Of a DNA stretch of 64,000 bases, positions 41,426 to 41,565 are shown piece after piece. The notes beneath the pieces were generated by a model. That model was given only the letters and a program-made list of their open reading frames with translations. It did no database searches and was not told where the DNA came from. This DNA comes from Escherichia coli. GTDB lineage: Bacteria; Pseudomonadota; Gammaproteobacteria; Enterobacterales; Enterobacteriaceae. The position numbers were made by a program, and so were the translations under genes. The stretch lies in NCBI RefSeq assembly GCF_044647545.1, contig NZ_CP172818.1, one strand, 5' to 3'. Within the stretch, counting starts at the first letter, position 1. Each line of letters starts with the position of its first letter.

Positions 41426-41529
41426 AAGGGTTGGATTTGCGAAACACAAGTATGCGCTAATTATCGCCTTAAATGAAAAGAGGGCCGCATCAAGGACTAA
41501 CACAGGTCCCATACCACCAAACTCCAACC

Positions 41530-41564
41530 AAAAAAAAAAAAAAAAAAAAAAAAAAAAAAAAAAA
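41530..41564. repeat. 35-nt uninterrupted poly(A) tract (poly(T) on the speA coding strand) 1 nt downstream of speA stop
   Basis: Direct count: A x35 at 41530-41564, then c, then tta (speA TAA on minus strand). Confidence 0.9.
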
Positions 41565-41565
41565 C

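Follow-up and report, generated by a model that had tools for sequence, protein, structure and literature searches.

The agmatinase gene speB (40442–41362) and the biosynthetic arginine decarboxylase gene speA (41566–43542) both lie on the minus strand of the stretch of E. coli DNA analyzed here, which is 64,000 nucleotides long and is called the window below. Both genes are intact, and speB is identical to natural ST131 speB. The spacer between them ends in an uninterrupted run of 35 A on the plus strand (A35, 41530–41564), followed by C at 41565 and TTA at 41566–41568, the reverse complement of the speA stop codon TAA. Read on the speA-sense strand, this is TAA-G-T35. An earlier note on this DNA had placed A35 one nucleotide from the speA stop codon, with U35 following it on the speA strand, and the sequence does read so. 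In a window of such composition, a run of 35 A or T is expected by chance about 5e-17 times, and no homopolymer is longer than 8 nt in the 68.7-kb natural counterpart of the window. Further runs of 9, 9, 11, 11, 14 and 17 A are present in the window, all of them within the regions at 36.8–37.3 kb and 56.1–57.3 kb.

A megablast search of the window against 5,426 complete RefSeq E. coli genomes identified it as a segment of an ST131-type chromosome reaching from bglA to speC. Identity to ECONIH1, FDAARGOS_497 and similar strains was 100.000% across 13.5-kb blocks and about 99.96–99.97% across 14.5 kb. The window and ECONIH1 have in common the ST131 IS1 insertion at about position 15538. A C>T change at 34484 in yggP alters the inner C of a CCAGG (Dcm) site. 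This natural marker of a subclade is common to only four of the 5,426 complete genomes (MS14385, EC11, 4973 and WP4-S18-ESBL-09) and puts the source isolate close to them. The subclade marker and the shared IS1 therefore indicate that real isolate data lie behind the window.

The comparison with related genomes that had been proposed in the earlier note showed that neither natural allele of the speB–speA spacer contains A35. The natural ST131 spacer is about 1.0 kb long (for example ECONIH1, NZ_CP009859.1 3424811–3425822, and FDAARGOS_497). Its 899-bp insert holds 251 A and, after the conserved hairpin described below, an ORF of 243 aa (WP_000758898.1; L001 1999–2730) with a lipoprotein-like N-terminus, for which Pfam and NCBIfam searches returned no family. 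This ORF is a widespread uncharacterized gene; the insert is present in 3,558 of the 5,426 complete genomes (66%) and missing from the other 34%. Insert-free genomes such as K-12 have a spacer of 137 bp (NC_000913.3 3083798–3083934). The window follows the natural ST131 allele up to 41475 and again from 41566, with the 899 bp between these points swapped for 90 nt, and its speB–speA text fits neither allele. Its flanks and the first 113 nt after speB, hairpin terminator included, are 100% identical to the ST131-type spacer; in place of the 90 nt of the window, that spacer has 899 bp with the 243-aa ORF and a strong terminator for speA. With the K-12-type spacer the window shares the hairpin terminator, the 9-mer TAACACAGG after CAAG and the AC before the speA stop codon. 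The K-12-type spacer, however, has no A-tract and no TCCCATACCACCAAACTCCAACC filler, and the left part of the spacer in the window, like its speA, has ST131 rather than K-12 alleles.

The interval 41426–41565 had previously been singled out. Only 41476–41565 is abnormal (90 nt, consisting of 54 garbled nucleotides, A35 and C); the segment at 41426–41475 is ordinary ST131-type spacer, 100% identical to ECONIH1 and FDAARGOS_497. The garbled 54 nt at 41476–41529 are a blend in which a noisy ST131 allele, GCATCAAG, is followed by the K-12-type TAACACAGG (41498–41506) and then by A/C-rich filler. In K-12, this 9-mer occupies the same relative position after CAAG, and it was not found anywhere in the whole natural ST131 counterpart of the window, as befits a remnant of the insert-free allele. 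The C at 41565 is also K-12-type (ACTTA), whereas natural ST131 reads AATTA. None of the 5,426 complete E. coli genomes covered 41476–41529, and the best coverage of a 1-kb query was 91%, in two pieces. An exact 36-mer from the 54-nt text, GGACTAACACAGGTCCCATACCACCAAACTCCAACC, had no matches in genome_contigs and metagenome_contigs. The earlier claim that A35 is not native E. coli sequence is supported by the comparison with natural ST131 genomes and with K-12.

On the minus strand, the segment at 41386–41432, just upstream of speB, folds into a hairpin (−24.5 kcal/mol, z = −3.76) that is followed by U7. This natural, terminator-like structure is conserved in K-12 and ST131. A consensus terminator scan of 41200–41800 returned no terminator-like site; it missed the hairpin because the real structure has a bulge, and folding was needed to find it. 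Natural ST131 has, in addition, a strong terminator hairpin directly after speA (−28.3 kcal/mol). In the ST131-type lineage, speA has a terminator of its own, which is gone from the window with the collapse, and the hairpin at 41386–41432 follows the intervening 243-aa gene. Accordingly, the suggestion that a hairpin at 41386–41425 is the native speA terminator was correct as to the hairpin, which folding extends to 41432; it is the speA-proximal terminator only in K-12-type genomes and not in the ST131 lineage. Folding of 41426–41600 on the minus strand gave no stem before U35, which adjoins TAA-G directly, and the real hairpin with its U7 lies 97 nt further downstream. As a U-run without a preceding stem, A35/U35 was rejected as an intrinsic (Rho-independent) terminator. 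An Rfam scan of the window found only 6S RNA (ssrS, 10889–11072) and the SIB antitoxin RNA (11721–11871), both unrelated to A35. Both are intact and far above the Rfam gathering thresholds; these conserved non-coding genes are spared by the corruption seen elsewhere.

The window was aligned base by base to ECONIH1, and ECONIH1 was aligned to K-12 MG1655. The corrupted stretches of the window all fall in DNA that is present in ST131 and absent from K-12. At positions without a K-12 homolog, 5,830 of 9,409 were not reproduced, against 17 of 59,311 K-12-homologous positions; the 17 include 11 that adjoin a breakpoint, as well as the natural subclade SNP. Five of the seven K-12-absent segments (117 bp to 3.2 kb) are mostly lost or garbled, while the 2,485-bp and 30-bp segments carry scattered small indels or substitutions. 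The losses reach 85% in the bglA–gcvP spacer (117 bp), 46% in the region of a prohibitin-family gene (1.25 kb), 96% in the speA–speB insert (935 bp) and 90% in the TRAP-transporter region (3.2 kb), and the 30-bp loiP–speB spacer is left with a 4-bp scar.

The A/C-rich composition at 36.8–37.3 kb and 56.1–57.3 kb that had been noticed earlier was confirmed. In the prohibitin-family gene (36833–37311), substitutions that copy a neighboring base give way to a stretch where about 490 bp have become 57 A/C-rich nucleotides. In the TRAP transporter operon (56086–57265), 3.2 kb are represented by about 1.16 kb of A/C-rich text that ends in A17, A11 and A14, and ST131 fidelity is back exactly at the yggM stop codon (57266). 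All three A/C-rich regions, together with several smaller scars, are degraded segments of ST131 DNA that is missing in K-12. A common technical or synthetic origin had been suggested for them. The technical part of this suggestion is supported, and deliberate synthetic design is unsupported because the text is a lossy copy of natural sequence and not a designed part.

At 14480/14481, 1,346 bp are cleanly lost, which leaves a K-12-type yqfE junction with ST131 alleles; a LysR regulator gene loses its 5′ part and an FMN azoreductase gene most of its sequence. The yqfE pseudogene junction is found in 2,089 complete genomes at no more than 96.3% identity, and none of these has the ST131 alleles of the window on both sides. 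At 1008–1010, a REP-bearing 101 bp of the bglA–gcvP spacer is lost with a small scar. The scar reads GCTC after bglA (1005–1012), and the bglA stop codon is TAG, not TAA. As an exception, the 2.5-kb K-12-absent segment at 14539–17023 (DUF1471, ferric reductase, IS1 and FAD-oxidoreductase) is reproduced at 99.6%, with small indels only. Eleven small indel or SNP events occur in 1.9 kb of it (14750–16628) and are confined to K-12-absent genes. The DUF1471 gene has a +1/−1 frameshift pair, and its 86-aa frameshifted product was absent from an index of 153 billion genes. Beside the shared IS1, FDAARGOS_497 (L002 ~19576) is without 463 bp of a ferric-reductase-like gene that is kept in the window (15075–15537) and in ECONIH1; this gap looks like an IS1-adjacent deletion in that strain.

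Deletions or scars of 1–8 bp were seen at 27265–27268, 36563, 40400, 40440 and 56086–56097, exactly at the edges of structural differences between ST131 and K-12. They sit in the mscS–fbaA, cmtB-downstream and loiP–speB spacers and in the hemW 3′ REP. At 56086–56097 the text drifts toward the K-12/REP consensus GCCGNATGCGGCGT. In scpA (methylmalonyl-CoA mutase), a one-base deletion at 18348 in a C6 run causes a frameshift after about 58 codons. The site reads CCCCCC in ST131 and CCGCCC in K-12, and the deletion may be a true mutation or a consensus error in a homopolymer. Three substitutions (58617, 58630 and 58888) fall within 272 bp of ansB, a K-12-homologous core gene; no genome among the 5,426 complete ones combines them. 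ST131 has T274, for which the first substitution gives S274, the residue common in the species; the second and third are synonymous. These substitutions may have arisen by recombination, by error or by bleed-through of a prior. Beyond the degraded blocks there are four substitutions, one at 34484 and three in ansB, and only one of the four has the K-12 base; bleed-through of the K-12 reference was therefore rejected as an account of the isolated SNPs.

The damaged blocks have a characteristic error spectrum. The prohibitin gene has 63 substitutions at 36833–37170; 60 of them repeat an adjacent base, compared with a random expectation of 31.6 ± 3.7. In the better-preserved TRAP remnant (56788–57032), the bases deleted were T (21), G (14) and C (3), with no A deleted. 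The longer A/C-rich TRAP blocks are subsequences of their own natural counterparts, with LCS values of 233/233 and 560/604; among 200 control segments of equal length and 100 shuffles, not one attained these values. The LCS of the A35 block, 79/79, was the same in controls, this block being short and the measure saturated; the 57-nt prohibitin collapse was saturated too. Across six collapsed blocks, base retention was 0.48 for A, 0.29 for C, 0.16 for G and 0.17 for T. A was the most kept base and C the second in all six; this held on the plus strand throughout, with affected genes on either strand.

The blocks also share a polarity. From left to right, each passes from mild errors to collapse, then to A-runs, and returns within a single base to perfect ST131 sequence. 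The return points at 41566 (speA) and 57266 (yggM) are stop codons at which K-12 homology restarts, and from them ST131 alleles continue for 14.5 and 6.7 kb, respectively. Over 41566–56108 the window differs from ECONIH1 at only five positions, all at 56086–56097. The error spectrum of the damaged blocks is not mutational or biological.

As is typical of a reconstruction artefact, A35 is absent at this locus from independent assemblies of the same lineage, its signature is shared by other stretches of the record, and the spectrum of changes goes beyond mutation. The coincidence of the damage with K-12-absent DNA, the non-biological spectrum, the subsequence relation, the K-12-type remnants and the absence from other genomes were all observed directly. 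They argue strongly that A35 is absent from the actual DNA, a reading in which we have high confidence. The tract is almost certainly made up of surviving A's of the 899-bp insert. This last assignment rests on analogy with the longer blocks, because the subsequence test is uninformative for the short A35 block.

An artefact of a scaffold-anchored consensus derived from reads is the mechanism we favor, and we hold it as probable rather than as established. On this account, the source organism would be a real ST131 E. coli whose chromosome should hold 899 bp between speB and speA. A K-12-type scaffold without the insert, or some equivalent prior, would have served to build or correct the sequence, and the consensus step would lose register wherever the strain has DNA that the scaffold is missing. 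Substitutions copying the neighboring base would come first, after which most bases would be dropped, with A kept most, then C, then G and T. The insert would thereby collapse into a short A/C-rich text ending in A-runs, and perfect fidelity would be restored at the first base of renewed scaffold homology, which at the A35 locus is the speA stop codon. One possible route is a pileup or neural consensus of long reads in which large insertions are stacked from the left anchor. Calls between gap and base might then be made with a bias or tie-break favoring A, before re-anchoring at the next reference base.

The software step responsible is inferred from sequence comparison. To our knowledge, no documented pipeline gives exactly this dropout of A > C > G > T retention. 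The failure is, moreover, not uniform, as one K-12-absent segment of 2.5 kb survives at 99.6%. Projection of a reference-anchored multiple alignment with its insert columns dropped was rejected as a variant of the mechanism; the collapsed blocks exceed the K-12 spacers in length and are unlike them.

The polarity and the neighbor-copy substitutions also resemble degenerate decoding, which raises the question of whether the window, or its variable segments, came from a free-running generative sequence model or from deliberate in-silico corruption, with A35 as a low-complexity decoding collapse. Homopolymer collapse is documented in long generations by Evo 2 (bioRxiv 10.64898/2026.01.17.700093), and K-12-type and REP-consensus-like text appears where the sequence of the strain would be unfamiliar to a model. 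Nevertheless, the true ST131 sequence contains the collapsed text as a subsequence, to a significant degree and in one block perfectly, and the process therefore had the true sequence as its input. A free-running left-to-right model cannot recover at the right base with ST131 alleles and then continue for 14.5 kb at about 99.97%, and the subclade SNP of only 4 of the 5,426 genomes is retained in the window. An origin of this kind is conceivable, but we regard it as rather unlikely. Some other purely in-silico corruption that was given the true sequence as input is possible.

The remaining explanations all appear far less probable. Tracts of about 30 A can be maintained in E. coli plasmids, and A35 adjoins the stop codon with near-base precision, as might be expected if the 899-bp insert of an engineered strain had been replaced by a short synthetic cassette with a poly(A)/poly(T) tract. 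No recognizable cassette parts, scars or primer sites are present, however, and what makes up the 54 nt is local alleles, noisily mixed. The same degradation at unrelated loci leaves frameshifted, half-garbled genes, and neither the error spectrum nor a base dropout fixed to one strand is a design feature; we regard engineering as very improbable. Spontaneous deletion of the insert with expansion of an A-tract by slippage, or targeted hypermutation of horizontally acquired DNA, is if anything less credible still. Homopolymers do expand by slippage, and the insert is polymorphic in E. coli, with 34% of complete genomes missing it. Against this, both natural alleles, K-12-type and ST131-type, are without the 54-nt text and without an A-tract that could act as a seed, natural runs in the region do not exceed 8 nt, and a core that is 100% identical to sister strains leaves no time for about 5,800 changes. 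We know of no biological mechanism for neighbor-copying, for one-strand dropout in the order A > C > G ~ T or for a polarity that is independent of gene direction.

The least plausible of these explanations treats A35 as a poly(A) tail that came either with a cDNA or polyadenylated transcript inserted by retrotransfer or with cDNA reads contaminating the assembly. Poly(A) tails, whether bacterial or added in vitro, span lengths that include 35. The polarity is wrong, however, as the sense strand of speA and speB carries T35, and the 54-nt body of the supposed cDNA is garbled local sequence with no target-site duplication and no flanking direct repeats. The other A-runs are interrupted, and these runs close each collapsed block on its right side, whichever strand the genes are on. 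Taken as a general case, physical presence of the 90-nt text with a stable A35 in a living ST131 derivative, whether through engineering or through an unknown erosion of recently acquired DNA into A/C-rich remnants, is highly improbable. Were A35 physically present, it would affect speA 3′-end formation and speB read-through.

With the tract read as a reconstruction artefact, the value of the observation is for data hygiene and not for biology. The record looks finished and is base-perfect over most of its length, while damage affects all seven strain-specific inserts in the 64-kb window, five of which are for the most part deleted or reduced to low-complexity text. In gene-content, pangenome or accessory-gene work on this record, the speA–speB ORF, the prohibitin-family gene, the TRAP transporter and the LysR/azoreductase pair would wrongly count as missing or pseudogenized, and scans for unusual sequence will repeatedly flag its A-runs. 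A diagnostic that can be reused elsewhere is the combination of damage on DNA without a K-12 homolog, neighbor-copy substitutions and collapsed text that is a subsequence of the true sequence.

Among known systems, phase-variable tracts at contingency loci also place a long mononucleotide run beside a gene. Such tracts are typically much shorter and lie in promoters or 5′ coding regions. They are kept at their locus with length variation among isolates, whereas A35 lies 3′ of a stop codon and is absent from the 5,426 genomes; as no natural allele at the locus has it, its assignment as a phase-variable tract was rejected. Homopolymer tracts in Escherichia have a mean of 6.27 nt; in public assemblies, maxima of 56 to 108 occur as rare exceptions (PMC8928963). 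Autoregressive genome language models produce homopolymer runs and degrade in one direction, as in the window (bioRxiv 10.64898/2026.01.17.700093). Their reported collapses, however, are multi-kilobase, set in after hundreds of kilobases and do not recover onto true sequence, whereas the window recovers exactly. The precedent closest in kind is the ST131 strain NA114, whose "complete" genome is a reference-ordered misassembly (Forde et al. 2014, PMC4134206). The two were not taken to be the same record, as nothing links them and the error type differs: in NA114, contigs were misplaced by ordering against SE15, and there is no base-level collapse on a K-12-type scaffold. What NA114 and the window have in common is that a "complete" ST131 record carries systematic, non-biological differences confined to strain-variable DNA, which in NA114 arose, and in the window would have arisen, from reliance on a reference.
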